A stretch of DNA of 64,000 nt from Betaproteobacteria bacterium (GCA_028139135.1 JAOINB010000001.1:45171-109170), one strand, 5' to 3'; shown: positions 14,038-59,996, counted from the first letter of the stretch. Numbers and translations are program-made. Notes: generated by a model not told the origin, from the sequence alone.

Positions 14038-14217
14038 TTTTATAGTTTATTTAATGAAACGAATACAGGAAAGCGAATTCTCGAGTTTAACAGAACATAA
14101 CTTTTCTAATAATGACTAACCAGTTATACTCATCAAAACCTTATTATTTCCCGTCAAAAAAATAGCTATTTTTGTAGAAATGTTGTTACTCGGTTAAATC
14201 TTTCAAGGAAAAAATTA
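14038..14217. promoter_or_regulatory. Divergent intergenic region (MFS / prpC operon)
   Basis: 180-nt AT-rich spacer between divergent genes. Promoters inferred from geometry only. Confidence 0.3.
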
Positions 14218-46772: not shown

Positions 46773-47570
46773 CTATTTAACCACACCACTTTGATGGCAA
46801 AGCCCGCCCGTTATTTCAATTGTCGTGCCATTAATTGCTTCATTTTCTATGATATGTTCTATTAACATTGCGATTTCACCGGGCTCAATGAGACGATTTA
46901 AGTGTACGTCCTTTATTAATTTTTCTAATATAGCTTGATTCATATTTTCCAACATTGGGGTCTTTGTATAACCAGGGGCTATCCCTACAACTCTAATATT
47001 CTTAATTTTTTTTAGCAAAAATTCTCCCACCAATATTTTTGGAAATAACGAAATAGCAACCTTTGAAGATGAGTAATTGAGCTGACCCAATTGTCCTGCT
47101 TTATTTACAGATGAAATTGGAACAATCAGCGAAGGCCAACCTCCATTTGCCATCGCTTCCGCACAATCACGAATGGTTAAAAATGATCCTGTTAGATTAA
47201 CATTAAGCACACTGTTCCAATCCTCTAAAGACAACTTCTTGTTAACTCGTTTGGTTTCTTTGTCCATACTGATAGCCAAACCATCCCGAATTAGTCCCGC
47301 ACAAGGTATTGCGATGTTAATCTTGCTAAACTTACGAAGTGCTGCCTTAACCATTTCCAGAGACTCTTTTTCGTCAGCAACATCGCCGCAAAAAGTTTCA
47401 AAGTCGGTTATTTCTTTTTCTTGTAAAATCTCAGCAGTTTTGAGGACGGCTTCCGGGTCACGATCTGCTAAAAAAAGCATGGCCCCTTTTTGCCCGAAAT
47501 GGTCGGCAAGGCTTGCTCCAATTCCGCTTCCTGCTCCTGTAATTAATACGACAGATTCTTTAAGATTCAT
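46773..47570 (-). CDS. Short-chain dehydrogenase/reductase
   Basis: TGAGSGIG cofactor motif, YSSSK catalytic motif. Confidence 0.85.
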   Translation of the reverse strand: MNLKESVVLITGAGSGIGASLADHFGQKGAMLFLADRDPEAVLKTAEILQEKEITDFETFCGDVADEKESLEMVKAALRKFSKINIAIPCAGLIRDGLAISMDKETKRVNKKLSLEDWNSVLNVNLTGSFLTIRDCAEAMANGGWPSLIVPISSVNKAGQLGQLNYSSSKVAISLFPKILVGEFLLKKIKNIRVVGIAPGYTKTPMLENMNQAILEKLIKDVHLNRLIEPGEIAMLIEHIIENEAINGTTIEITGGLCHQSGVVK

Positions 47571-47742
47571 AAAATACCTTTGCTTATAGGGATTACCCTA
47601 TTATATTGCATTGCACAAATTATTACAGCAAAAATTTTAAATTCACCATTTTGAGAGGGGAAAATGGGCTACTCTCTATTTTCCGACTATAATTTAGGTG
47701 TCAGGCAGTTGATATGAATTATCTGCGAGTCGAATATTTATA

Positions 47743-48225
47743 ATGCCTTCGAAAGTTATTGCAAATTTTACGAATCTTATCGCTACGGGTATTTCCCTTT
47801 GGATTACTAGCGCTCTTTTTGACGGATTCTCTTTTAACACTACTGAGGCTCTATTGATTACAACAGTATTGCTCACGTTAATAAATATATTTGTAAAACC
47901 AATTATTCTATTACTGACGCTTCCACTAGCAGTTGTTTCTTTAGGCTTAATTATCCCTATAATAAATGGGGCCGTCTTGCTGGGATTAGCGGAAGTTATC
48001 CCAAACTTCGGGATAACATCATTTTTCCAGGCCATATTCGCAGCATTGTTGGTATCAATAATATCGACACTCATATACGTCGCTCTTGGAAGACATAAAA
48101 CCTTTGTTTCTGTGAAAAATTCAACGGACTTTTCCTCAGATTCGCAACGATTTTCAACTCAAAACGAGGGTTTTTCGGGAAAAAATAAGACAACAATAGA
48201 CGTAGATGTCCGTGAAAAAAAATAA
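47743..48225 (+). CDS. DUF360 / holin-family-4-like small membrane protein
   Basis: Four TMs with the DUF360-like pattern (FVKPIILLLTLPLAVVSLGL). Confidence 0.6.
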   Translation: MPSKVIANFTNLIATGISLWITSALFDGFSFNTTEALLITTVLLTLINIFVKPIILLLTLPLAVVSLGLIIPIINGAVLLGLAEVIPNFGITSFFQAIFAALLVSIISTLIYVALGRHKTFVSVKNSTDFSSDSQRFSTQNEGFSGKNKTTIDVDVREKK

Positions 48226-49227
48226 TTAGACCTGAATATAAGATAAAACCTTACGAAGCTCCTCCTGTTCCTTCCCTAATGTAGATTCAGCTACTGGACA
48301 ACTCGCGAGTTGCTTTTCCATCTGCTTCCGACATAATTCATCAAAAAAAAAGGCATGTAACTTTTCTGAAACGTCTATAGCTGAACCAACACTATGTAAA
48401 CCCACATATGCAGACCCTAATAACGCAGTGTGACATGAAATATCACTTGCAATGATTGGAAGTCCCGCATTTTGAGCCTCTTGAATCACAAGAGATCCTC
48501 CTTCAATAAAAGATGAGTGTAGTAACAAATCATAATTAGCTAAAACCGTTTGCAATTTCTCTTTTTCAATGGGACCTAAGAAAGAAATACTTTTAACACC
48601 TTCAAAAAGATTTGTTATTTTTTTAAAATAGGCCTGGTCCAAAATGCCTCCAATATGATCGAGAGTAAATTTGGTCCTCGCACCAATATTTTTCTGAAAT
48701 TCTAGGAATCCAGAAATTGCAACTATGATTCCTTTTTCTTTTCGTAAATTACTCAATAATAAAATTTTATACTGGTTCTTTTTTTTGAAAAAAAAACTCC
48801 TCTTTTTAAAATCTATAACCGACTGTAAAACTACGAAAATCCGGTTTCTTGGGAGAGAAACGACCTTCAATAAATCCGACACAGCATTTTTATGTAAAAC
48901 TACGATTGCTGATGCTAATTCAATAGATCTCAGGCAATGTTCTTTTTTGGAGTTTTTCGTTGAAATAATATCTCTATATAGATCAGTTCCTGTAAGGACC
49001 AAAATAACAGGAATATTCTTCGCGGCTAACTCTTTTACTACATGAAATCCTTTTTCAGCGTGAAGCACAAAAGCACACCTAACTCCCTCAGCATTAACTT
49101 TTTCTTCAAAGCCGTTACAAGTGGAAACCCTATACCCAAGATTTTGCAAGTGGTAAGCATATCTTTTCGCCGTAACGTAATTCCCTGTAACGACGTTATC
49201 TCTAGTGGGTGAGTAAATTTTAATCAA
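48226..49227 (-). CDS. senB: Glycosyltransferase, candidate selenosugar synthase SenB
   Basis: GT-B-like 333-aa protein (C-terminal EGGSLVIQEAQNAGLPIIASD). The TTG start lies 5 nt after the selD stop. The SenB call rests on context. Confidence 0.7.
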   Translation of the reverse strand: MIKIYSPTRDNVVTGNYVTAKRYAYHLQNLGYRVSTCNGFEEKVNAEGVRCAFVLHAEKGFHVVKELAAKNIPVILVLTGTDLYRDIISTKNSKKEHCLRSIELASAIVVLHKNAVSDLLKVVSLPRNRIFVVLQSVIDFKKRSFFFKKKNQYKILLLSNLRKEKGIIVAISGFLEFQKNIGARTKFTLDHIGGILDQAYFKKITNLFEGVKSISFLGPIEKEKLQTVLANYDLLLHSSFIEGGSLVIQEAQNAGLPIIASDISCHTALLGSAYVGLHSVGSAIDVSEKLHAFFFDELCRKQMEKQLASCPVAESTLGKEQEELRKVLSYIQV

Positions 49228-49232
49228 AGTAG

Positions 49233-50285
49233 CTAACTATGAGTAAAAATATTGTACTCGGTCTTTTTTACGACATCACCAATGATCGAAGCATCATAGC
49301 CTTCTTTAACAAAAAGATTTAACACAGACTCAGCGTCGTAGTTTTTCACAGCTACTAAAAGCCCTCCACTCGTCTGAGGGTCTGCTAGTACAACTTTATC
49401 CATATCTGAAATAGTTTTGCTAAACTGAATATCGTCTTTGATTGCATCCAGATTTCTTTGAGAGGCTCCCGTCTTATAACCCTGATTTATCAGCTCTTCT
49501 ACACCATCATGCCTTAAGATTTTTTTTTGATAAATAATCGACGATGTGTTGGAACCTATATTCATCTCATTTAAATGACCTAACAGGCCAAATCCAGTAA
49601 CATCAGTCATTGCTGTTACAGAGTCAAGCTCGCCTAATTGCATCCCAATTTTATTCAGTTGAGTTGTACTTTTAATAAAAGAATCATAGTATTGCTTGCT
49701 AAGCGAACCCTCCTTAATTGCTGCTGAGTAAACCCCTACCCCGATTTTTTTTCCTAAAATTAATCTATCTCCGACGCAGGCAGTAGAATTTTTTCGCAAA
49801 TTTTTTATATCAACTAAACCAGTAACAACAAGACCGTAAATTGGCTCCATGCTGTCAATTGTATGACCACCTGCAACAACTATTCCTGCTTCCTCACAAA
49901 TGTCACTTCCTCCTTTAAGAATTTTGGAGATCGTATTAGATGACAATGTATTTACAGGCATCCCTACAATCGCTAAGGCAAATAGTGGTTTTCCTCCCAT
50001 AGCAAAAACATCAGACAGTGCATTTGTAGCAGCAATAGCCCCAAAGTGAACTGGGTCGTCAACAATAGGCATAAAAAAATCAGTAGTAGAGACAATAGCC
50101 TGTGACTGATTAATCTGATACACAGCTGCATCATCGGATGTTCCTAGGCCAACTAATAACTCTTCGGGCGATGCAGCACCCCTAACTTTTCCGAGAATAT
50201 CTGATAAAATTCCAGGTGATACTTTGCAACCACAACCTCCCCCATGGGCAAGAGACGTTAATTTTGGCTCGTTTTTTATTTTCAT
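49233..50285 (-). CDS. selD: Selenide,water dikinase (selenophosphate synthetase), SenC role
   Basis: LAHGGGCGCKVSPGIL N-terminal motif (Cys form), AIR-synthase-like fold, 350 aa. Confidence 0.9.
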   Translation of the reverse strand: MKIKNEPKLTSLAHGGGCGCKVSPGILSDILGKVRGAASPEELLVGLGTSDDAAVYQINQSQAIVSTTDFFMPIVDDPVHFGAIAATNALSDVFAMGGKPLFALAIVGMPVNTLSSNTISKILKGGSDICEEAGIVVAGGHTIDSMEPIYGLVVTGLVDIKNLRKNSTACVGDRLILGKKIGVGVYSAAIKEGSLSKQYYDSFIKSTTQLNKIGMQLGELDSVTAMTDVTGFGLLGHLNEMNIGSNTSSIIYQKKILRHDGVEELINQGYKTGASQRNLDAIKDDIQFSKTISDMDKVVLADPQTSGGLLVAVKNYDAESVLNLFVKEGYDASIIGDVVKKTEYNIFTHS

Positions 50286-50290
50286 AGACT

Positions 50291-51550
50291 ATGAGTATAT
50301 CAAACAAAAACTTTAGGGATTTAGAACCATCCGAATTTATTGAGTGTTTTCAAAAAACCAGGCGAGAGACAGTAAAAATACTAAAAATATTTAGTGATAA
50401 CTTGGGCTCAGAATTGAGAATTCCCAACCTAATGGAAGCTAATTTACCAGTCTGGGAATTTTGTCATGTAGGTTGGTTTTATGAACGCTGGATCGTCAGA
50501 AATACACGATGTTCTTTTGACAAAAGGTATGATCTTTCTGTTGATTGGGACAATTTTTGTAGTAGTAGAACTCATTTTGAGGATGCAGATTCTATTTTCG
50601 ATTCTAGCAAAATAGAGCATGACGCGAGGTGGGATTGCAGCCTTCCCACATTCTACGAGACGCTAGATTACTTGCAAAAAATAAGGGATGCCGTAATAGA
50701 AAAATTCGAGACAAATTTGCCTCAAGGTAATGAAACTTTCTATTTTTACAAATTAAGCCTTGCGCACGAAATGATGCATCTCGAAGCATTTAAAATGACA
50801 GCTCAAATACTTAATTTTGAAATTCCAGAATTAAAAAGTAAATATTTAAATCTTGATTGTAGTTCTGAAAGCCCTTTTTTATCTTTCAATGAACAAACTA
50901 TTTCTCCATATCATGAAAATTATGCATTTCACTTTGACAATGAAATTTTCAATGGAGAAACTACTGTCAAGCCGTTTAAAATTCAATCATCTTGTGTAAG
51001 CTTAAAAAGTTTTTTAGAATTCCTACTTTCCGACGATTTTTTGAATGCTAGCTTTTGGTCCAAGGAGGGAAAAATATGGCTCTCTACAAGCTTTTATAAT
51101 AAATCTTTTTATAAGAATATAAAAAAAGAATTTAAAAAAATTACAGATATCGACTCTGAATTCGTAAAAATTAAATGGTTTGGAAAAAATGAGAATTTAC
51201 ATTTAAATCTACCAGCCTTACATGTTTCTTTCTTTGAGGCTGAAGCATACGCTAACTGGAGAGGCATGCGTCTTCCAACCGAGTTGGAATGGCTTCTTGC
51301 GTCACAAAGTACAAACTTTCATTGGGGAGATGTTTGGGAGTGGACATCGAATACGTTTTCTGAGTTTCCAGACTTTGTTACACACCCGTATAGGGACTAT
51401 TCGAAACCATGGTTTGACGGACAACATAAAACTGTAAAAGGAGCAAGTTTTGCAACTTGCGAAGATTTCCGTAACCTACATTTTCGGAATTTTTATAAGC
51501 CGACCAGAACAGATATTTTCTCAGGTTTCAGGACTGCCTGTTTCGTTTAG
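50291..51550 (+). CDS. senA: EgtB-like non-heme-iron sulfoxide/selenoxide synthase, candidate selenoneine synthase SenA
   Basis: DinB-like N-domain with HVGWFYERW and HX3HXE (LAHEMMHLE). C-terminal FGE-sulfatase-like domain (ANWRGMRLPTELEW, WEWTSN, GFRTA). No OvoA-type methyltransferase domain. Confidence 0.75.
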   Translation: MSISNKNFRDLEPSEFIECFQKTRRETVKILKIFSDNLGSELRIPNLMEANLPVWEFCHVGWFYERWIVRNTRCSFDKRYDLSVDWDNFCSSRTHFEDADSIFDSSKIEHDARWDCSLPTFYETLDYLQKIRDAVIEKFETNLPQGNETFYFYKLSLAHEMMHLEAFKMTAQILNFEIPELKSKYLNLDCSSESPFLSFNEQTISPYHENYAFHFDNEIFNGETTVKPFKIQSSCVSLKSFLEFLLSDDFLNASFWSKEGKIWLSTSFYNKSFYKNIKKEFKKITDIDSEFVKIKWFGKNENLHLNLPALHVSFFEAEAYANWRGMRLPTELEWLLASQSTNFHWGDVWEWTSNTFSEFPDFVTHPYRDYSKPWFDGQHKTVKGASFATCEDFRNLHFRNFYKPTRTDIFSGFRTACFV

Positions 51551-52463
51551 CAACGAAAATACCGTACCTATTGCTAGGATGTAAAAAGTCATAGATATCA
51601 ACGTAACCAGAACCCAGCAATAAATTTTTAAAAGATTCCTGTGAATATTTGTGTGAATTTTCAGTATGGATTGATTCCCCTTTGGAAAATACTCGCTTCC
51701 CGAAAGGAGAATTCACGGGTTGCGTGCTTTTTGCTACCAAGTGCATCTCAATACGAGACTTAGAAGAATTATAAATTGCTTTGTGACTCCAATTTCCAAC
51801 TTCAAAATCTGTACCTAATAGCGCATTTGCATTCAATAATGCGTTCTTGTTGAATGCAGCTGTAACACCAAGTGAATCATCATAGGCACTAATCATTTCT
51901 TGTTCTGGCTTTATCAAGTCAACACCGATAATAATAGAGTCATGATCAATACTCATTAGAAAGTTCTTTGCATCCGCTGGGGAGTAATTTCCAATAGTTG
52001 ATCCAGGGAAAAAAAGTACTTTGTCAAGGTTGTAAATTGTATCCCCAACTATTCGAGCCATCTCACTCAAGAAAAGTCCGGATGTAAAATCTTTTTCAAG
52101 CGCGTAGATCTTTTGATTTCTTAACGAGTTCTTTAGTCTTGTTACGGAGTTCTTGAAAAATTTAGATGGCAAATCAACCGCCAAAAATACCTCTGGACAC
52201 ACCTCAGGCAGTACCTTTTCTGCCTTTGAACAATTCCCAGCTCCCAAATCAATCAAACAAATATCAGAAGGGAGAATCTTTTTTATTTCTCGGATTCTAT
52301 TCTGAAAAATTGAGAGCTCATCCTTTGTGGGGGTATATTCTTCCAGCCTTGTTATAGCTTCGAAAAGAAGACCTCCGAGACTATTATAAAAAAAACGCGG
52401 AGGCAAAAACGCTTGTGAATTTACGAACAATCCTTCTAGGGCTTTTTTGTCATCTTCTGTCAT
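51528..52463 (-). CDS. egtD: L-histidine N-alpha-methyltransferase (hercynine synthase)
   Basis: FFYNSLGGLLFEAITRLEEYTPTKDE...LIDLGAGNCSKAEK is the EgtD pattern. GGAGGA SD. The ATG directly follows the phnE stop. Confidence 0.85.
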   Translation of the reverse strand: MTEDDKKALEGLFVNSQAFLPPRFFYNSLGGLLFEAITRLEEYTPTKDELSIFQNRIREIKKILPSDICLIDLGAGNCSKAEKVLPEVCPEVFLAVDLPSKFFKNSVTRLKNSLRNQKIYALEKDFTSGLFLSEMARIVGDTIYNLDKVLFFPGSTIGNYSPADAKNFLMSIDHDSIIIGVDLIKPEQEMISAYDDSLGVTAAFNKNALLNANALLGTDFEVGNWSHKAIYNSSKSRIEMHLVAKSTQPVNSPFGKRVFSKGESIHTENSHKYSQESFKNLLLGSGYVDIYDFLHPSNRYGIFVAKRNRQS

Positions 52464-53228
52464 TTAATAAATCCTCCGTCTAATTGAGTAACTAAGTCCG
52501 TCAACGAACAGTATCAACAAAAGCATCGCTAAAATTACTGTACAAGCCTTATCCATTAAAAAGAGTCCTAGATGGAAACTTAATAATTGACCTAAACCAC
52601 CTGCTCCAACTAAACCTAAAACAGATGCAACCCTGATATTATTTTCCCAACGATAGAGAATATAGCTTAAGAACTGAACAGTTAATTGAGACATTTTATT
52701 GTGTAAGAAAATATTGAAATTACTTACACCATTAATCCTGAGCACTCTGGGCGCTTCGGGCGGAACATTTTCCAGAGCATCAGAAAATAGTCGCCCTAAA
52801 ACACCGGTAGTGTGAAAAATAATTGCTAAGCAACCGGCAAATGGACCCAATCCAGCACTTATTATTAACAATGCAGCCCAAACTAATTCCGGTATGGAAC
52901 GAAGTACATTCAGAAGAAACTTACAAAAATCCGAGGAAATCTTTCCCACAAGCGTATCAGTGTATTCACTGCTGAAGTAAGCTAAAATTAATCCGAAAAT
53001 CGCCGATAAGAAAGTGCCCATGATGGAAATTGCCAATGTTTCCCAAAGGGCGATTAAAATAGCTTTTAAAAAATCTCTTTCTGTATGTGGCGGGAAAAAT
53101 TCCGCTAAAAACTTAAAAATATTTTCTAGGTTATCAAATGCAACGAGCTCACCTAATCTTAAATCTACTTGCGTAAAACTGAAAATTAAAAGGAGAAAAA
53201 CTATTGACACTGTTACAAGTTTGTTCAC
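52464..53228 (-). CDS. phnE: Phosphonate-type ABC transporter permease (PhnE-like, copy 2)
   Basis: 6 TMs, PhnE-like core (LRSIPELVWA). Confidence 0.85.
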   Translation of the reverse strand: MNKLVTVSIVFLLLIFSFTQVDLRLGELVAFDNLENIFKFLAEFFPPHTERDFLKAILIALWETLAISIMGTFLSAIFGLILAYFSSEYTDTLVGKISSDFCKFLLNVLRSIPELVWAALLIISAGLGPFAGCLAIIFHTTGVLGRLFSDALENVPPEAPRVLRINGVSNFNIFLHNKMSQLTVQFLSYILYRWENNIRVASVLGLVGAGGLGQLLSFHLGLFLMDKACTVILAMLLLILFVDGLSYSIRRRIY

Positions 53229-54046
53229 GTTAAACTCTTTCTAATGCTTTTACTGAAGTAATCAGATAACCAAACTAACACAATAAAGGCAAATAAAATC
53301 GTAAGAACCTCATCACCAGCAAACATTTTTAAGGAGCTTTCTAACTGAAAACCTAGTCCTCCGGCTCCGACAAAACCCATGATTACGGTTGATCGAAGAG
53401 CACATTCCCATCTATAAACTGTATACGATAAAAGTTCTAATAAATTTTGAGGAATAAGGAAGTACATAAGTACTTGTAGTCTGCTGCAGCCTATTTGCAT
53501 AGCGTATTTTCCTGGAAGATTATCTCCACTTTCTAATATTTCTGCATAAACTTTTCCAAGCATTCCCCCATAGGTAAGGGCAATAGCTAGTATTCCTGCT
53601 GTAGGTCCAAGTCCTACAACCCTAACGAAAATTAATGCCCAAACAATTTCAGGAATACTACGTAACAAAATCAACAAAGCCCTAATTAAATATCGCAATA
53701 AATACGGAAGAACAGGCTTTCTATTTTCAAATTCGGAAACAGATAATGCAGTTGTAATTAATAATGCAGATGGTATCCCAATAAAAAGAGCGAAAAATAA
53801 ACCGACTGTAGCAATTGCTACTGTCTGAAGAGAACTTTCAAACACTTCTAACAAAAAAGTATCAGTTAAATTTGGCGGGTAAAAAGTTGACAAGAAATCA
53901 ATGGTAATCTTTAAATTTTTCTCGCCAAATAAAACCCAAGGGTAAAATTCAACAGTTTTAATTAAAGGGAAAAATAGAACTATGAAAATCACAACGAAGG
54001 TAAAATTTCTTCGAGCAATTGTATCCTTGTATTCAGAAGCTAACAC
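53225..54046 (-). CDS. phnE: Phosphonate-type ABC transporter permease (PhnE-like, copy 1)
   Basis: 6 TMs, LRSIPEIVWALIF motif shared with copy 2. Confidence 0.85.
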   Translation of the reverse strand: MLASEYKDTIARRNFTFVVIFIVLFFPLIKTVEFYPWVLFGEKNLKITIDFLSTFYPPNLTDTFLLEVFESSLQTVAIATVGLFFALFIGIPSALLITTALSVSEFENRKPVLPYLLRYLIRALLILLRSIPEIVWALIFVRVVGLGPTAGILAIALTYGGMLGKVYAEILESGDNLPGKYAMQIGCSRLQVLMYFLIPQNLLELLSYTVYRWECALRSTVIMGFVGAGGLGFQLESSLKMFAGDEVLTILFAFIVLVWLSDYFSKSIRKSLT

Positions 54047-54804
54047 TTTACATGTCTTTCATAAGTGTCCTCTAATAGAGAAGATGTAACTTTTTCTACA
54101 GGAAGGTCGAATGCCAGATTCCCTTCCTTGATTCCGACTATCCTTGGAAAGTATCTCAGAGCAAATTCGACCTGATGCAAAGTGCAGACAAACGTAATCT
54201 TCTTTTGTTTTGCATGATCACGTAGTGTTTTAATAACAGTATCTGCAAGCTTTGGATCTAAGCCAGACAGTGGTTCATCGATTGTCCAAAAAGAGGCATC
54301 AGATATTAACGCCCTTGCTAATGACACCCTCTGTCTCTCACCTCCGGATAGTTGGTCTACCCTATTTGCAATTTTGTCACTTAGTTGAAACTCATGTAAG
54401 ACTTCTGTTACAGCATGAACATTCTTTGGATAAATTAAAGAGACCAAAGAAGTTAAAAGATTCGTCGTAGGCAAACAACCTGCCAAAACCGCGTTGTACA
54501 CACTCTGACGCAATGGAAACGAAGGTTCTTGCGGGACAAAACTCACCAATCTCCTAAGTTTGTGACGAACTACACTTGAAGATAACCAGGGATTTAGCTC
54601 ATTAAAAAAAACTTGTCCTGAAGATGGTTCTGAGGCAAATATCAATGCCTTAAGGAGGGACGTTTTTCCAGCCCCCGAGGAACCAACGATTGCAACCTGC
54701 TCTCCTTGAGAAAACCCTAAATCAATACCATTCAAGATGGTTTTAGTATTTCCTTTTGGAGTTACGACTCTTTGACAATAATTTTTTAATAATACGGAAC
54801 CCAA
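54040..54804 (-). CDS. phnC: Phosphonate-type ABC transporter ATP-binding protein
   Basis: Walker A GSSGAGKTS, signature LSGGERQRVSLA, Walker B WTIDEP. TTG start. Confidence 0.9.
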   Translation of the reverse strand: MGSVLLKNYCQRVVTPKGNTKTILNGIDLGFSQGEQVAIVGSSGAGKTSLLKALIFASEPSSGQVFFNELNPWLSSSVVRHKLRRLVSFVPQEPSFPLRQSVYNAVLAGCLPTTNLLTSLVSLIYPKNVHAVTEVLHEFQLSDKIANRVDQLSGGERQRVSLARALISDASFWTIDEPLSGLDPKLADTVIKTLRDHAKQKKITFVCTLHQVEFALRYFPRIVGIKEGNLAFDLPVEKVTSSLLEDTYERHVKC

Positions 54805-54813
54805 GAGAAACTG

Positions 54814-55674
54814 TTACTTTAAAAGTCCTGCGTTTCGTGCAGCCTTTTCAATATCTCCATAATTTTCTGCATTGGTTGCAATAAAACCGGATGCCCTTTG
54901 CAATTCCAGTATGCGTTTACCAGCTTCTGTATCGTTAGATAGTTTCAGGAATGCTTTGGTAATATTCTGTCTGACAGTTTCTGAAACTTCCTTATGAACT
55001 GTCCAATTATAGTCGTAATAAAACGGCGTTGTATAAAAGACTCTCGTACCCTCTGGTACTTTGTTTTCTTTGGATAACTTCTCCCATACTTTGATGTTGA
55101 GAGCACCCGCTTGCACCTTCCCGGAACCTACTGATGCAACTGTCGCATCGTGAGCACCGCTATAAGCCGTGCGCTTAAAATCTTCTTCAGGATTTATTCC
55201 AGCTTTAGCTAAAAATGTTCTAGGCATCAAGTGACCACTAGTTGAGCTCTGTGAACCGAAAGAGAAGGTTACTCCGTTCAAATCAGCCAATGTCTTAATC
55301 TTTGGATCCGTCGTAATGAATACTGATTGAAATTTTTCATCTTCGACCCGTTGAATGATCGGCATTACATTGTTGCCGGACCTGATCTTAGCCTGCACAA
55401 AAGTAAATCCTCCATACCAGGCCATATCTACTTTACGATTGACAAGGGCCTCTACAGCAGCCGCGTAATCTGTAACTGGGATAAATTCGATTGTTAGTCC
55501 AGTTTCCTTTTCTAAGTGGTCAATCAAGGGCTCAGCTTTACGAAGTAATTCCGTAGGAGCCTCATCCGGAATGGCAGTAATTTTAAAACTATCTTCAGAC
55601 TTTTGCTCATTACTGCAAGATACTAGTAAAAGAGAAAAAAGCGAAGCAATCCCTATTTTGACTAAACGATTCAT
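54814..55674 (-). CDS. phnD: PhnD-family (phosphate/phosphite/phosphonate-type) periplasmic binding lipoprotein
   Basis: Start chosen at MNRLVKIGIASLFSLLLVSC (lipobox) with GAGGG SD. FIPVTDYAAAVEALVNRKVDMAWYGG and STSGHLMPR motifs. Confidence 0.85.
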   Translation of the reverse strand: MNRLVKIGIASLFSLLLVSCSNEQKSEDSFKITAIPDEAPTELLRKAEPLIDHLEKETGLTIEFIPVTDYAAAVEALVNRKVDMAWYGGFTFVQAKIRSGNNVMPIIQRVEDEKFQSVFITTDPKIKTLADLNGVTFSFGSQSSTSGHLMPRTFLAKAGINPEEDFKRTAYSGAHDATVASVGSGKVQAGALNIKVWEKLSKENKVPEGTRVFYTTPFYYDYNWTVHKEVSETVRQNITKAFLKLSNDTEAGKRILELQRASGFIATNAENYGDIEKAARNAGLLK

Positions 55675-55750
55675 CTTGACCCTCAAAATATCTATTGTAA
55701 CAGACGTGAAGCTAAGTGTCCTCATGAGTTCGTAATTTCATTGTTGGTCG

Positions 55751-58033
55751 TTAGTCAATTAAAAGTTCGACAATCTCTTCCTTATCTAACCACTCAGAAA
55801 AAATAAAAGGGGCTTGGCCTGGTCGAAGTAGAATATTTAATGGAACGCCGACTCTCCCATATTTTTTTATTTCATTCTCAATTTCCTTATTTTGCTTTGT
55901 CCAATCAGCCCGAATAAGTATGATATTTTTCTCAGCAAATAAATCTACAAGCTGTTCGTCTTCAAGAACTCTTACTTTATTAACTTGACAAGTAATACAC
56001 CAAGTCGCTGTAAAATCTAACAAAACTGTGTCGCCTTTTTGCAAAAACAGTTCAGGCAGACCAATCTCCCAATTCTTCCATTCAATTTTTTCCTTCGTGA
56101 TACTAATAACTTCATCCTTTTCGTTCCTATCTGACAGAGTGTCAAAACTTTTTTTCGAATGTGCATTAAATACACTATGCGCAGTTATCACAATTGCAAT
56201 TATCAGAACCAAACGTACAACATTGATTTGATATATTATGTTAGAACTTGTTTTGTATTGTTTCGGAAAATGTTTCTTATGCCAGAAAAATATGGCGGCA
56301 AGAATCAAGATAACAAATATTTGGAGTATTGATTCATTCCCTTCTAACTCAATATATATTAGTAAAAGCCAACCCGCAGAGATTAACATCGGGAAACCGA
56401 GAAACTCTCGAAGCAACTCCATCCATTTTCCAGGTTTCGGTAAAAACCCTATTAACCGCGGATTACTGGCCAAAACGACGTAGGGAAAAGAAATTCCTAT
56501 GCCCAAAGCAAAAAACACAAGTATTAATTCAGTATTTGATGTGCTAACAGCATAACCTAGAGCACTACCCATAAAGGGAGCGGTACAGGGAGTCGCCACA
56601 ACAACGGTTAATGCCCCACTGAAAAAATTACCCAAAAACCCTGAATAGCGATCATAGGAAGCAAGGGAGAGCGAACTTGTTGCAAACTCAAAAAATCCAA
56701 ACAAATTTAATGCCATGAGAAAAAAAAGGAAGACTAAACAAAGAACAAATGATGAATTTTGCAACTGAAAACCCCAACCAATGCTGGTCCCTGAATTTCT
56801 CAGCAATATAAACGTAACTGCAAAAAGTAACATAAATGAAAGAACACCAAGTGAAAACCCAAGGGTATTGATATTGCTCTGGAATCCATTATTGCTCGTT
56901 TTAATTAAGCTCAAAACCTTAATTCCAATAACTGGAAAAACACATGGCATAAGATTTAAAATCAACCCTCCAAAAAAAGCAAAGCCAATACTCACTAAAA
57001 AACCGATGTTTGTCTTAAAGTACCTATCATCTGCATCATTTGTTAAAATTCTTTCGGAGGTCCCTGCTAGGTCTAAATTCTCTAAATTTCTTTCATCAAA
57101 ATCTCGGTATTCTAGTTTTATGTATTTTGAAGAACCATCAGAAAATTTTAGCAAGCCATTAAGGGACTCGATTCCCAACTTTCCAACCTCGGGTGTTTCT
57201 GTATTCAACTTAGATTCTAAACGCCAGCCTATATCTTTAGTTGCAACATCCCTCACGTTAACAAATGATTGTGTTGCCGATGGGACAATTAATCCTTTTT
57301 TTAAAGGAAAAAATTCGGGACTTTTTTCTAGTTTTTCTAAAAAGCTATAAATATATAGTTTTTTATAATCTTTGCTATGTGACCAAAATAACCTGTTGGA
57401 AAAAGCTACGTCTTCTTTTGGATTGTTTTTTCTCACATTTTCTATGGATCTAGAATAAGATGTTCTACCAACTTCCAAATCTTCTGAAACTGGTAGCCTA
57501 ACCGACAATGTTTTATTTCCTGGAATACAAACATCTTTACAAATTAACCAGGCAACATTGACATCAATACGTACTGAATCCGTTACCAAATCATCTGGCA
57601 TAGATATGTCTTGTAATAGAAGCAAACTATTTTCGTATCCATAATTTGCCAGGGTGTCAATTAAAAACTTTTTTGGGGTTGGCCATTGAATCGGTCCTAC
57701 TTTCCAAAGTCCATTAGCAACCGAAAAGTTATGACTAATTTTAGTAGGGAGGCCAGTATCACCAGGATTGGACCAGTACGTATGCCAGCCAGGATCATGC
57801 TCCATTTTTACACCAAGCGTAAATGTGTTTCCGGGACTGATAGCTTTTCTGTCCGTGACCAACCCAATCTGTAGATTTCCTTCCCGAGCTAAACCCTCAA
57901 CATTATTAGACATGTTAAAAAATGTTGGTAAATCCTGGGCTAAAAGAAAATTTCCTTGAAAACCAGCTACCTCGGTTAACAAGAAAAAGATAAATATAAA
58001 AAAAGTACGTTTTACGCGTATCCCTTTGTTCAT
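55751..58033 (-). CDS. DsbD-superfamily transmembrane thiol:disulfide reductant transporter, ScsB-like (760 aa)
   Basis: Long periplasmic N-domain with LICKDVCIP. TM core with MPCVFP and TPCTAPF cysteines. C-terminal thioredoxin TATWCITCQ. Confidence 0.85.
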   Translation of the reverse strand: MNKGIRVKRTFFIFIFFLLTEVAGFQGNFLLAQDLPTFFNMSNNVEGLAREGNLQIGLVTDRKAISPGNTFTLGVKMEHDPGWHTYWSNPGDTGLPTKISHNFSVANGLWKVGPIQWPTPKKFLIDTLANYGYENSLLLLQDISMPDDLVTDSVRIDVNVAWLICKDVCIPGNKTLSVRLPVSEDLEVGRTSYSRSIENVRKNNPKEDVAFSNRLFWSHSKDYKKLYIYSFLEKLEKSPEFFPLKKGLIVPSATQSFVNVRDVATKDIGWRLESKLNTETPEVGKLGIESLNGLLKFSDGSSKYIKLEYRDFDERNLENLDLAGTSERILTNDADDRYFKTNIGFLVSIGFAFFGGLILNLMPCVFPVIGIKVLSLIKTSNNGFQSNINTLGFSLGVLSFMLLFAVTFILLRNSGTSIGWGFQLQNSSFVLCLVFLFFLMALNLFGFFEFATSSLSLASYDRYSGFLGNFFSGALTVVVATPCTAPFMGSALGYAVSTSNTELILVFFALGIGISFPYVVLASNPRLIGFLPKPGKWMELLREFLGFPMLISAGWLLLIYIELEGNESILQIFVILILAAIFFWHKKHFPKQYKTSSNIIYQINVVRLVLIIAIVITAHSVFNAHSKKSFDTLSDRNEKDEVISITKEKIEWKNWEIGLPELFLQKGDTVLLDFTATWCITCQVNKVRVLEDEQLVDLFAEKNIILIRADWTKQNKEIENEIKKYGRVGVPLNILLRPGQAPFIFSEWLDKEEIVELLID

Positions 58034-58223
58034 GACCCTACGCTAAAAATATGACTAACACCGATATGAAGCGAATTCCTCTGTGTAATTCCAATATATG
58101 CCCGCTGTTCAATTACTTTGGGCTTGATATCATTAGATAAGTTCTCGCCTAAATCTACGAAAATAACTAAGTTAGCTTAATCGTTGACCGAAAACGCCTG
58201 CTTTGATGCGTAAATCCATAGAG

Positions 58224-58598
58224 TCACTTATTAAAATTGCAAATTTCTAACCCGCGTTGAGGGTAGTAAGTACGCGAATTACTTTCCAAAACAACCTCTG
58301 CTTCACGAGAAACATAATCACCGTGAAATCCTGTACAACGCCAATTCTTAGAATCTTCCATTTGGCACCCTTTATATTCTCTCCAAACAGCCTTTCCCCC
58401 TTTGTCGAAGCCTATAGCGACAACCCTCCGGGAACTAAAATCTGGTATCAGCGTATACTTGAATGAATCTATGCACCGCTCGCAATTCGACCCTTCCTCG
58501 CAGATGCCAAAGTGGATCTCTAGATCACCAGCATGTAAGGGGAAACTGGAAGCTATAAAACCACACAAACCCCAACAAATGTTTTTTAACCGTCTCAT
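58224..58598 (-). CDS. Small secreted Cys-rich hypothetical protein
   Basis: Signal peptide and about 8 Cys in the mature part. No family recognised. Confidence 0.5.
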   Translation of the reverse strand: MRRLKNICWGLCGFIASSFPLHAGDLEIHFGICEEGSNCERCIDSFKYTLIPDFSSRRVVAIGFDKGGKAVWREYKGCQMEDSKNWRCTGFHGDYVSREAEVVLESNSRTYYPQRGLEICNFNK

Positions 58599-58745
58599 GA
58601 ACTGAAATTATCGCCGATTTAAAAACCAAAAACCATCGGGAAAACCGCTATTACTAGAATTCCCATCAACTAGCGTAAACTATAGTATAAATAAACAAAA
58701 GTCTGATTCCTTTAATTTAATTTGTTGCGTAACGTAAGCTTTTCC

Positions 58746-59996
58746 ATGCATGTAAATATAGACAGTAACTACGAAGACAAAACTGGTGCAAAATTAGCCT
58801 CTGAGCTAATTCGTAAATGTGTGCACTGTGGATTTTGTAATGCCACTTGTCCTACGTACCAAACCCTGGGAGACGAGAGGAGTGGCCCTAGGGGCAGAAT
58901 TTCAATAATTAAGGATTTGTTGGAGGGAAAACCCACTTCAACCGATTCTTTACATCACCTGGATCAATGCTTACTATGCCGTAACTGCGAAACAACCTGC
59001 CCGAGTGGAGTTCAATATTCTAAGATTTATGAGCATGGAAAACCACTTATGGAAAATGTTGAAAAAAGACAATTTTGGCGTCGATTTATAAGAACTATTT
59101 TAAAAAAATTTTTATTGTCAAAAAGCTTTCATATTAGTATTTTCATAGCAAATCTCTTCAAGTCTGTTTTGCCGAAAAACGTAAGAGCTTTCTTGCCAAA
59201 TAAAAAACTCCACACCATTCCAACTAATATAAACCTAAAAAAACAAAATAAAAATTTTCATAGCAAGTCGTATAATATTTTGCTATTTCGTGGATGCGTT
59301 CAAAAATCACTAAAGCCTGCTATAAATACCGCGACAGAACTTGTGTTAAATGCTGCAAATTGCAAAACATTCATTGCTACAGATAGTGTTTGTTGCGGAG
59401 CTTTAGAAGGTCACCTATCAGACAAGACAGCGAAATTAAAACGCGTAAAAGAGAATATCTCCCATTGGAAGAACGCCATACAAAAAAATAAGATTGATTT
59501 TTTAGTTTCCGCAGCTTCTGCATGTAGCTATGAAATAAAGGATTACCTCAACGTAAGCGGGTTATCTGAAGACGAAAAAAAATCAGTTAAGGATATTGTC
59601 AACATAACCAGAGATATCTCAGAGTTACTTCCACAAATCTATGAGTCATTGAAAAACACGATAAAGATAAAGGATGAGAAAATAGCTTTCCACCCCCCTT
59701 GCACTTTACAACATGGATTGAAAATCAACGGATTGATTGAAAAATATTTCAAAGATTTTGGCTATGACATAGAGACTCAGTTTCCTGAAAAACACTTGTG
59801 CTGTGGCTCAGCTGGAACATACTCTATACTTAACCCAAAAATTGCAGGAGAACTCAGAGATCGAAAACTCACCAATCTCCATCAAACCGGATGCTCACAA
59901 ATCTTAACCGCGAATATCGGATGTATAACACACCTACAGTCTAAGTCTGATAAGCCCGTAAAGCATTGGATAGAAAAATTAGCCGAAGATCTTTAG
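58746..59996 (+). CDS. glcF: GlcF-like Fe-S protein (two 4Fe-4S motifs + two CCG domains)
   Basis: CVHCGFCNATCP and CLLCRNCETTCP. CCG motifs SVCCGALEG and HLCCGSAGTY. Start placed at the first ATG (the track start 58722 is a TTG). Confidence 0.75.
   Translation: MHVNIDSNYEDKTGAKLASELIRKCVHCGFCNATCPTYQTLGDERSGPRGRISIIKDLLEGKPTSTDSLHHLDQCLLCRNCETTCPSGVQYSKIYEHGKPLMENVEKRQFWRRFIRTILKKFLLSKSFHISIFIANLFKSVLPKNVRAFLPNKKLHTIPTNINLKKQNKNFHSKSYNILLFRGCVQKSLKPAINTATELVLNAANCKTFIATDSVCCGALEGHLSDKTAKLKRVKENISHWKNAIQKNKIDFLVSAASACSYEIKDYLNVSGLSEDEKKSVKDIVNITRDISELLPQIYESLKNTIKIKDEKIAFHPPCTLQHGLKINGLIEKYFKDFGYDIETQFPEKHLCCGSAGTYSILNPKIAGELRDRKLTNLHQTGCSQILTANIGCITHLQSKSDKPVKHWIEKLAEDL

Follow-up and report, generated by a model that had tools for sequence, protein, structure and literature searches.

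A 64,000-nt stretch of DNA from a Betaproteobacteria bacterium (GCA_028139135.1 JAOINB010000001.1:45171-109170, hereafter the window) was investigated in this study, in which the genes of an ATP-binding cassette (ABC) importer are followed by egtD, encoding a predicted histidine N-alpha-methyltransferase (hercynine synthase), all on the minus strand and next to genes of the selenoneine (sen) pathway. We observed that the binding protein of this importer belongs to the TIGR04553 family, and we predict from its sequence and context, at a probability of about 0.7, that the transporter imports inorganic selenium for the selenophosphate synthetase SelD, with selenite as the favoured substrate. The placement of egtD as the fifth gene is a variant specific to the genus and conserved within it, and is not a peculiarity of a single assembly. 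An earlier note on this DNA had proposed that the transporter serves the selenium pathway, and the proposal is supported by the TIGR04553 membership, by selenium genes close to the transporter in 45 of 51 loci, and by the tracking of selD at the genome level.

The idea of a selenium importer is already published and is also carried in the database name of the family, so that the locus confirms an expectation. A putative selenate transporter gene was reported near many sen clusters, with egtD co-localised in a small subset of them (Kayrouz 2022, 10.1101/2022.04.13.486033). What is new here is a gene order conserved across a small-genome marine genus of Burkholderiales, whereas in most other Burkholderiales egtD is divergent from the transporter. 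Experimental work on TIGR04553, on the putative selenate ABC transporter, or on selenite with PhnD was not found in the literature open to searching.

Family assignment of the transporter

Families were assigned with Pfam and NCBIfam profiles, the latter being judged by their curated cut-offs. The substrate-binding protein (SBP), a putative selenium-oxyanion-binding lipoprotein encoded at 54814..55674 (-), scored 358.6 bits against TIGR04553 (ABC_peri_selen; cut-off 250), a family named 'putative selenate ABC transporter substrate-binding protein', and 358.8 bits when the whole genome was searched; its homologues at 62-68% identity bear the source name 'putative selenate ABC transporter SBP'. 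The lipoprotein had previously been described as 'PhnD-like', which holds for the fold family (PF12974, 222.9 bits) and fails for the equivalog: the score against TIGR03431 (PhnD) was 152.1 bits, under the cut-off of 261.1, and searches of the 85.6%-complete genome turned up no genes for phosphonate catabolism, so that the SBP was rejected as a PhnD equivalog and placed in TIGR04553 instead. The PhnC-like ATPase (54040..54804, -; PF00005, 95.6 bits) reached 177 bits against TIGR02315, under the cut-off of 266. Both PhnE-like permeases match PF00528; permease 1 (53225..54046, -) remained under the TIGR01097 cut-off of 216.7 with 188 bits, and permease 2 (52464..53228, -) exceeded it with 234.8 bits.

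The longest open reading frame (ORF) of the SBP gene begins at an ATG at 55725. The ATG at 55674 appears to be the better start, because it encodes a lipoprotein signal, MNRLVKIGIASLFSLLLVSC, lipobox included, and is preceded by GAGGG. The lipobox reads LVSC, and ends in GC in two related loci (L038 and L011). The SBP is a lipoprotein in the genus of the window, and the other TIGR04553 proteins carry cleavable signal peptides with AxA-like end sites.

Association of the transporter with selenium genes

The association of the family with selenium use was examined in 200 genomes drawn evenly from the phylum. The SenA model NF041186 was dropped as a genome-level sen marker, as 34 of the 200 genomes matched it at 316-375 bits and only 2 passed its cut-off; in the score range of the SenA of the window it fails to separate SenA from EgtB, and selD was therefore used as the marker. 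TIGR04553 was detected above its cut-off in 13 genomes, and SelD was present in 12 of these compared with 35 of the 187 TIGR04553-negative genomes (Fisher's exact p = 9e-8, a value that overstates the association since related genomes are non-independent). Two genomes with sub-cut-off paralogues of the SBP were without SelD. The family is thus associated with selenium use in general, with physical linkage in some lineages only.

For synteny, the 80 loci closest to the SBP, all of them from Burkholderiales, were examined by tblastn with the proteins of the window. The earlier note had asked for such a survey of sen loci and PhnD-type transporters, and selD, senA or senB was found within 10 kb of the transporter in 45 of the 51 loci that are flanked fully on both sides. 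In nine loci selD adjoins the transporter without sen genes, and the genome of the window itself encodes a second selenium-using enzyme, the tRNA 2-selenouridine synthase SelU; the transporter is for these reasons tied to selD in general and not to the sen genes alone. A separate TIGR04553 subgroup, 35% identical to the SBP and with the top model scores (421-423 bits), is represented by locus L106 (G107:C12, 7347-10393), where the neighbours of the SBP are a SenB-like gene and a SelD gene whose open frame of 767 aa looks like an oxidoreductase-SelD fusion.

Gene order, junctions and conservation of the egtD linkage

ORF calling revealed five successive ORFs on the minus strand at 51528-55725, and the junctions between them were read base by base. 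The SBP gene ends with TAA at 54816-54814 and the ATPase gene starts with TTG at 54804, leaving a gap of 9 nt; the TAG of the ATPase gene (54042-54040) and the GTG of permease 1 at 54046 give an overlap of 7 nt; the two permease genes share GTGA at 53228-53225, an overlap of 4 nt, permease 2 also starting with GTG; and the TAA of permease 2 (52466-52464) directly abuts the ATG (52463-52461) of egtD (51528..52463, -) as TAAATG. The Shine-Dalgarno sequence of egtD, GGAGGA at 52472..52477 (-), lies within the end of permease 2 and 8 nt ahead of the ATG. All of these junctions, as well as the GGAGGA, had been described before and were confirmed in the sequence. Unlike the SBP gene (GAGGG) and egtD (GGAGGA), the ATPase gene shows no recognisable Shine-Dalgarno sequence before its TTG in the 9-nt gap (54802-54813).

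In eight other species of the same GTDB genus, the SBP gene was present in seven. Six of the seven loci display one and the same order, namely a ScsB/DsbD-like gene, SBP, ATPase, permease, permease, egtD, a convergent senA and selD-senB, and the contig of the seventh ends inside permease 2. As this order recurs while EgtD identity falls to 46%, egtD as the fifth gene is a conserved variant of the genus. In one of these species (L038), whose SBP and EgtD are both above the NCBIfam cut-offs, the permease-egtD junction is an ATGA overlap. Beyond the genus, egtD lies directly upstream of the transporter and divergent from it in 37 of the 80 closest loci, and follows it on the same strand in only 4; in sister genera of the same family (GC 54-64%), the transporter stands alone in 10 of 11 loci.

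It is possible, though we regard it as somewhat less than an even chance, that the translational coupling between the permease gene and egtD is in itself without regulatory significance and is a by-product of streamlining after a rearrangement, an explanation that is compatible with selenium import. The window is 92% coding with 20 of its 39 same-strand junctions at 10 nt or less, egtD retains its own strong Shine-Dalgarno sequence, and elsewhere the gene sits on the opposite strand in the 37 loci mentioned. This explanation is weakened by the persistence of the order in all same-genus loci that extend past permease 2, despite the divergence of EgtD, and by the L038 junction, which is still tight. 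Genome compaction, which had earlier been raised as an alternative, accounts for the tight spacing and does not account for the linkage, which is conserved in large genomes and throughout the genus.

The 3' ends of egtD and of the convergent senA-like gene (50291..51550, +) overlap by 23 nt at 51528-51550 (17 nt in L038, at 14090-14106), so that no terminator space is left between the opposing transcription units. A consensus scan for promoters and terminators over 48000-58700 gave matches that were not enriched over shuffled sequences, and operon boundaries are accordingly not given; one of these matches is a weak sigma-70-like promoter, AGGACA-17-TACAAT with a TG extension, at 55694..55722 (-), within the interval that separates the SBP gene from the ScsB/DsbD-like gene. 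An Rfam scan over 47000-59000 at E <= 0.1 detected no riboswitch and no other RNA element.

The ligand pocket

The best solved relatives of the SBP are PhnD1 of Synechococcus MITS9220 (7S6G, 170 bits) and PhnD1 of Prochlorococcus (5LQ5, 152 bits), and the next are PtxB, ArrX (arsenate), E. coli PhnD (3P7I), AioX (arsenite) and HtxB. In PhnD1 the ligand is contacted by Y44, S124-T125-S126, H156, D203 and the capping Y204, while T65 and S123 act via water and D11 and N174 brace the cap (PMC10284923). By HMMER alignment, a comparison of sequences only, these positions correspond to Y70, S144-T145-S146, H175, D221, Y222, T91, S143, D37 and N193 of the SBP, and all are identical. The two TIGR04553 subgroups alike keep the pocket residues, allowing for Asp/Asn at position 221 and a replacement of Thr by Ser at position 91 in one subgroup. 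Compared with PtxB, PhnD1 has Phe in place of Tyr and recruits an Asp to finish the hydrogen-bond network (Bisson et al., PMC5700983); the TIGR04553 family has this PhnD1-type pair, Phe115 and Asp221, and the PtxB-like paralogues have Tyr and Gln. The SBP was accordingly rejected as a PtxB-type phosphite protein, having Phe115 and Asp221 where PtxB has Tyr (the Te_PtxB Y100 position) and Gln. The comparison with solved PhnD, PtxB and HtxB relatives that had been suggested for this protein thus ended with the PhnD1-type contacts identical and the PtxB Tyr/Gln pair unmatched.

PhnD1 prefers phosphite about tenfold over phosphate and needs three oxygens in a trigonal arrangement (PMC10284923), and its Tyr cap sterically shuts out bulkier groups (PMC5700983). 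On this basis the best fit to the pocket would be an anion that has three oxygens and is partly protonated, hydrogen selenite for example, and the previously drawn analogy between selenite and phosphite is consistent with a PhnD1-type pocket and with the preference of PhnD1 for phosphite. Since the Asp that requires protonation and the Tyr cap that favours three oxygens are both kept, we favour hydrogen selenite over selenate as the probable ligand, roughly 60:40.

The leading alternative for the substrate, which we consider unlikely while granting it real weight, is that the importer is specific for selenate, with cytoplasmic selenate reduction ahead of SelD. This agrees with the NCBIfam name and with the wording of Kayrouz 2022, and a PhnD1-type pocket does accommodate a four-oxygen tetrahedral anion, as phosphate is bound in 7S6G (PMC10284923). 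Nevertheless, the database name is a prediction made without an assay, the three-oxygen phosphite is bound by PhnD1 about ten times better than phosphate, and the conserved Asp/Asn221 position is a hydrogen-bond acceptor in PhnD1, which disfavours a fully deprotonated dianion. Selenate would be disfavoured because it is fully deprotonated at physiological pH and the Asp needs a protonated ligand oxygen; the same protonation logic was set out for PstS versus the sulfate-binding protein (Luecke and Quiocho 1990, as cited in PMC10284923).

No residue separating TIGR04553 from PhnD1 was consistent across both subgroups. His148, Asn223, Asp69 and Phe92 distinguish the subgroup of the SBP from PhnD1 and are inconsistent in the 35%-identity subgroup, which has Leu90, Gly92 and Arg148 in common with cyanobacterial PhnD1. 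As no cleanly separating residue was found in this comparison, no specificity determinant is claimed.

Selenium, phosphorus and hercynine genes in the genome

The genome of the window is a 1.49-Mb assembly, 85.6% complete, and the absences given here refer to that assembly. One PF12974 SBP was found in it, the one described above. The lack of C-P lyase, PhnX, PhnW and PhnA genes, noticed before in the window, extends to the assembly, where PhnJ, PhnX, PhnW and PhnA were not found above cut-off. No dehydrogenase is encoded among the operon genes, and the searches did not extend to htxA or to ptxD in the rest of the genome. Two PstS-type proteins were detected, which means that phosphate uptake is covered.

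These observations bear on a second alternative for the substrate, namely that this is a PhnD1-like phosphite or phosphate importer whose selenium neighbourhood reflects shared ancestry and not function. It is an improbable explanation, though it draws on the identity of all ligand contacts with PhnD1, a binder of phosphite, phosphate and methylphosphonate, on the PhnE equivalog score of permease 2, and on 10 of the 13 loci of the diverse sample having no selenium gene nearby. It is opposed by the strong association with selD (12 of 13 against 35 of 187 genomes), by the adjacency to selenium genes in 45 of 51 loci in several differing arrangements, by the two PstS-type proteins, by the phosphonate catabolism genes not being found, and by the sub-cut-off PtxB-like paralogues, which do not travel with selD.

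For selenium, a YedE-type transporter was not found above cut-off and SelA was not found in the genome search, while SelU is encoded at G000:C11:1339-2256 (-) (TIGR03167, 343 bits). With SelU present and SelA absent, SelD would serve selenouridine and selenoneine and not selenocysteine. The egtD gene is the only PF10017 gene of the genome, and no EgtB-type enzymes were found beyond SenA. Hercynine appears, from the gene content, to have one known consumer here, as SenA is the only EgtB-type enzyme, and selenium appears to have two, selenoneine and tRNA.

That the transporter takes up an organic precursor or product (histidine betaine, hercynine, ergothioneine or selenoneine) is highly improbable: the operon link to egtD is all that points to it in this locus, with aminoalkyl phosphonate binding by E. 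coli PhnD (3P7I) as a precedent in the superfamily, and it conflicts with the small oxyanion pocket, whose Tyr cap sterically bars bulkier groups, with the absence of similarity to betaine-type binding proteins in the Pfam and NCBIfam searches, and with the predicted internal production of hercynine by EgtD, which would make import redundant. Betaines are probably excluded by the type of pocket, and the histidine-betaine substrate once considered for this importer is thus unlikely.

Neighbouring genes

The EgtD protein passed the PF10017 threshold with 248.9 bits and remained under the TIGR03438 cut-off of 290.9 with 259.7 bits, for which its L038 orthologue reached 301.8 bits. It scored 130 bits against M. 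smegmatis EgtD (4PIM), and GSTIGN and TE.S are conserved in the alignment.

The selD (senC) gene, at 49233..50285 (-), is separated from the operon end by about 1.2 kb, and its product passed the cut-offs of both NF002098 (457.6 bits) and TIGR00476 (396.9 bits). The senB-like gene (48226..49227, -), for a selenosugar synthase of the GT4 type, has TIGR04348 as its best family match (162 bits, under the cut-off of 300) and is syntenic with senB of other sen clusters. For the product of the senA-like gene, a putative selenoneine synthase, NF041186 was the best match with 348 bits (under the cut-off of 420), compared with 183 bits for the EgtB model; its best solved relatives are SenA structures (8RYZ/8K5I, 203 bits) ahead of EgtB (82 bits), and the His triad and the catalytic Tyr motifs align. 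Its identity as SenA is supported by the PDB best matches and the synteny and not by the score range. The adjacency of selD/senC, senB and senA places the locus among the sen clusters, with SenA and SenB assigned as sub-cut-off best matches.

Directly upstream of the SBP gene lies a ScsB/DsbD-like reductant transporter gene (55751..58033, -; PF02683, PF11412, PF13899), encoding 760 aa, which occupies this position in seven of seven same-genus loci (L127-L133) with identity down to 37%. No such gene was found upstream of the SBP in the 80 Burkholderiales loci, the 13 loci of the phylum sample or the 11 sister-genus loci. Possibly the transcription unit begins with this gene. In a 97%-identical relative (L010/L128; G207, JAYQTQ010000002.1), egtD, senA and the ScsB-like gene are each split into several ORFs, most likely owing to frameshift errors of long-read assembly and not to pseudogene formation.

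Discussion

Our data point to an ABC importer that belongs, within the PhnD/PtxB superfamily of binding proteins, to the TIGR04553 branch and would bring in an inorganic selenium oxyanion. The lipid-anchored periplasmic SBP would catch the anion in a small PhnD1-type pocket formed by Tyr70, Ser144-Thr145-Ser146, His175 and Asp221, with Thr91 and Ser143 holding a buried water and the Tyr222 cap braced by Asp37 and Asn193, and the anion would then cross the inner membrane through the two PhnE-type permeases driven by the PhnC-type ATPase. Within the cell, selenium would be reduced to selenide and converted by SelD to selenophosphate, which would supply SenB and SenA for selenoneine as well as the 2-selenouridine synthase, whose gene lies in another part of the genome. 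With egtD transcribed as the fifth cistron, hercynine, the second substrate of SenA, would be made together with selenium uptake, and the capture of egtD into the operon in this genus may have joined the supply of both SenA substrates. The sequence data establish the gene order, the family membership, the synteny, the co-occurrence and the conserved pocket residues; the substrate, the co-transcription and any stoichiometric meaning of the coupling are our inference.

Several points weigh against this interpretation. No measured ligand for any TIGR04553 member was found in the searchable literature, and the nearest characterised relatives bind phosphite, phosphate and methylphosphonate, having been assayed without selenium compounds (PMC10284923, PMC5700983). 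With no residue found that cleanly separates TIGR04553 from PhnD1, a phosphorus oxyanion is compatible with the sequence of the SBP. Selenium genes lie within 10 kb in only 3 of the 13 transporter loci of the diverse sample, and the co-occurrence statistic is inflated by the relatedness of the genomes. The gene absences are provisional, given the incomplete assembly. Tight junctions are the norm in this compact genome, and the spacing alone is not beyond chance; for the co-transcription of egtD with the transporter, the promoter and terminator scans were uninformative.

In comparison with the TIGR04553 family, whose substrate is a prediction, the locus has an SBP of the same kind, with the genes of one ATPase and a pair of PhnE-type permeases behind it, in a selD-positive genome, and differs in that the SBP of the genus is a lipoprotein and not a soluble periplasmic protein, with the ScsB/DsbD-like gene before it and egtD after the permeases. 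As in the sen clusters of Variovorax paradoxus and others, senA, senB, selD/senC, egtD and a transporter are all present. The usual Burkholderiales order has selD and senB on one strand, senA on the other, and egtD divergent from the SBP, ATPase and permease genes, whereas in the window selD precedes senB, the transporter operon has egtD as its fifth cistron, and SenA and SenB are sub-cut-off. E. coli PhnCDE, PtxB/HtxB and ArrX/AioX share the PF12974 fold and the ABC architecture with this system, and ArrX and AioX, sensor binding proteins for arsenate and arsenite, show that members of the PF12974 family have come to serve oxyanions other than those of phosphorus; the SBP, however, falls short of the PhnD equivalog score, and its pocket lacks the Tyr and Gln of PtxB. 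With picocyanobacterial PhnD1 (7S6G/7ZCK; Prochlorococcus MIT9301 5LQ5/5LQ8), the ligand contacts and the Phe/Asp/Tyr-cap arrangement are identical, and the SBP has His148 for Arg, Asn223 for His and Asp69 for Asn.

The only ligands known for PhnD1 are phosphite, phosphate and methylphosphonate, and no link to selenium has been described for it. It binds phosphite, which the cells are unable to use, and is expressed independently of phosphate (PMC10284923); a count of 'selen' in the main text of that paper gave 0, and selenium ligands were apparently untried on PhnD1. Picocyanobacteria with PhnD1 carry a SelD fusion and ybbB (PMC1273633). A bolder and rather unlikely extension of our reading would be that the pocket common to TIGR04553 and picocyanobacterial PhnD1 is a selenite receptor, that the operon encodes a high-affinity importer of selenite and not selenate, that the PhnD1 transporters of Prochlorococcus and Synechococcus are selenium importers, and that the ScsB/DsbD-like protein is a sixth part of the system, supplying periplasmic reducing power.

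Dedicated bacterial selenium importers are poorly established by experiment, and the function of TIGR04553, a very large family (>8000 homologues listed), rests wholly on genomic association. The locus described here offers a clean case, an importer and a selenoneine-pathway gene in one operon of a streamlined marine genome, and with no phosphonate catabolism found and no other known use of hercynine, it is a good candidate for a binding or uptake test. PhnD1 transporters are abundant and their phosphite affinity is currently without a physiological explanation. If selenite is the ligand, the database name of the family should change, and the role of the closely related cyanobacterial PhnD1, abundant worldwide, would deserve re-examination.

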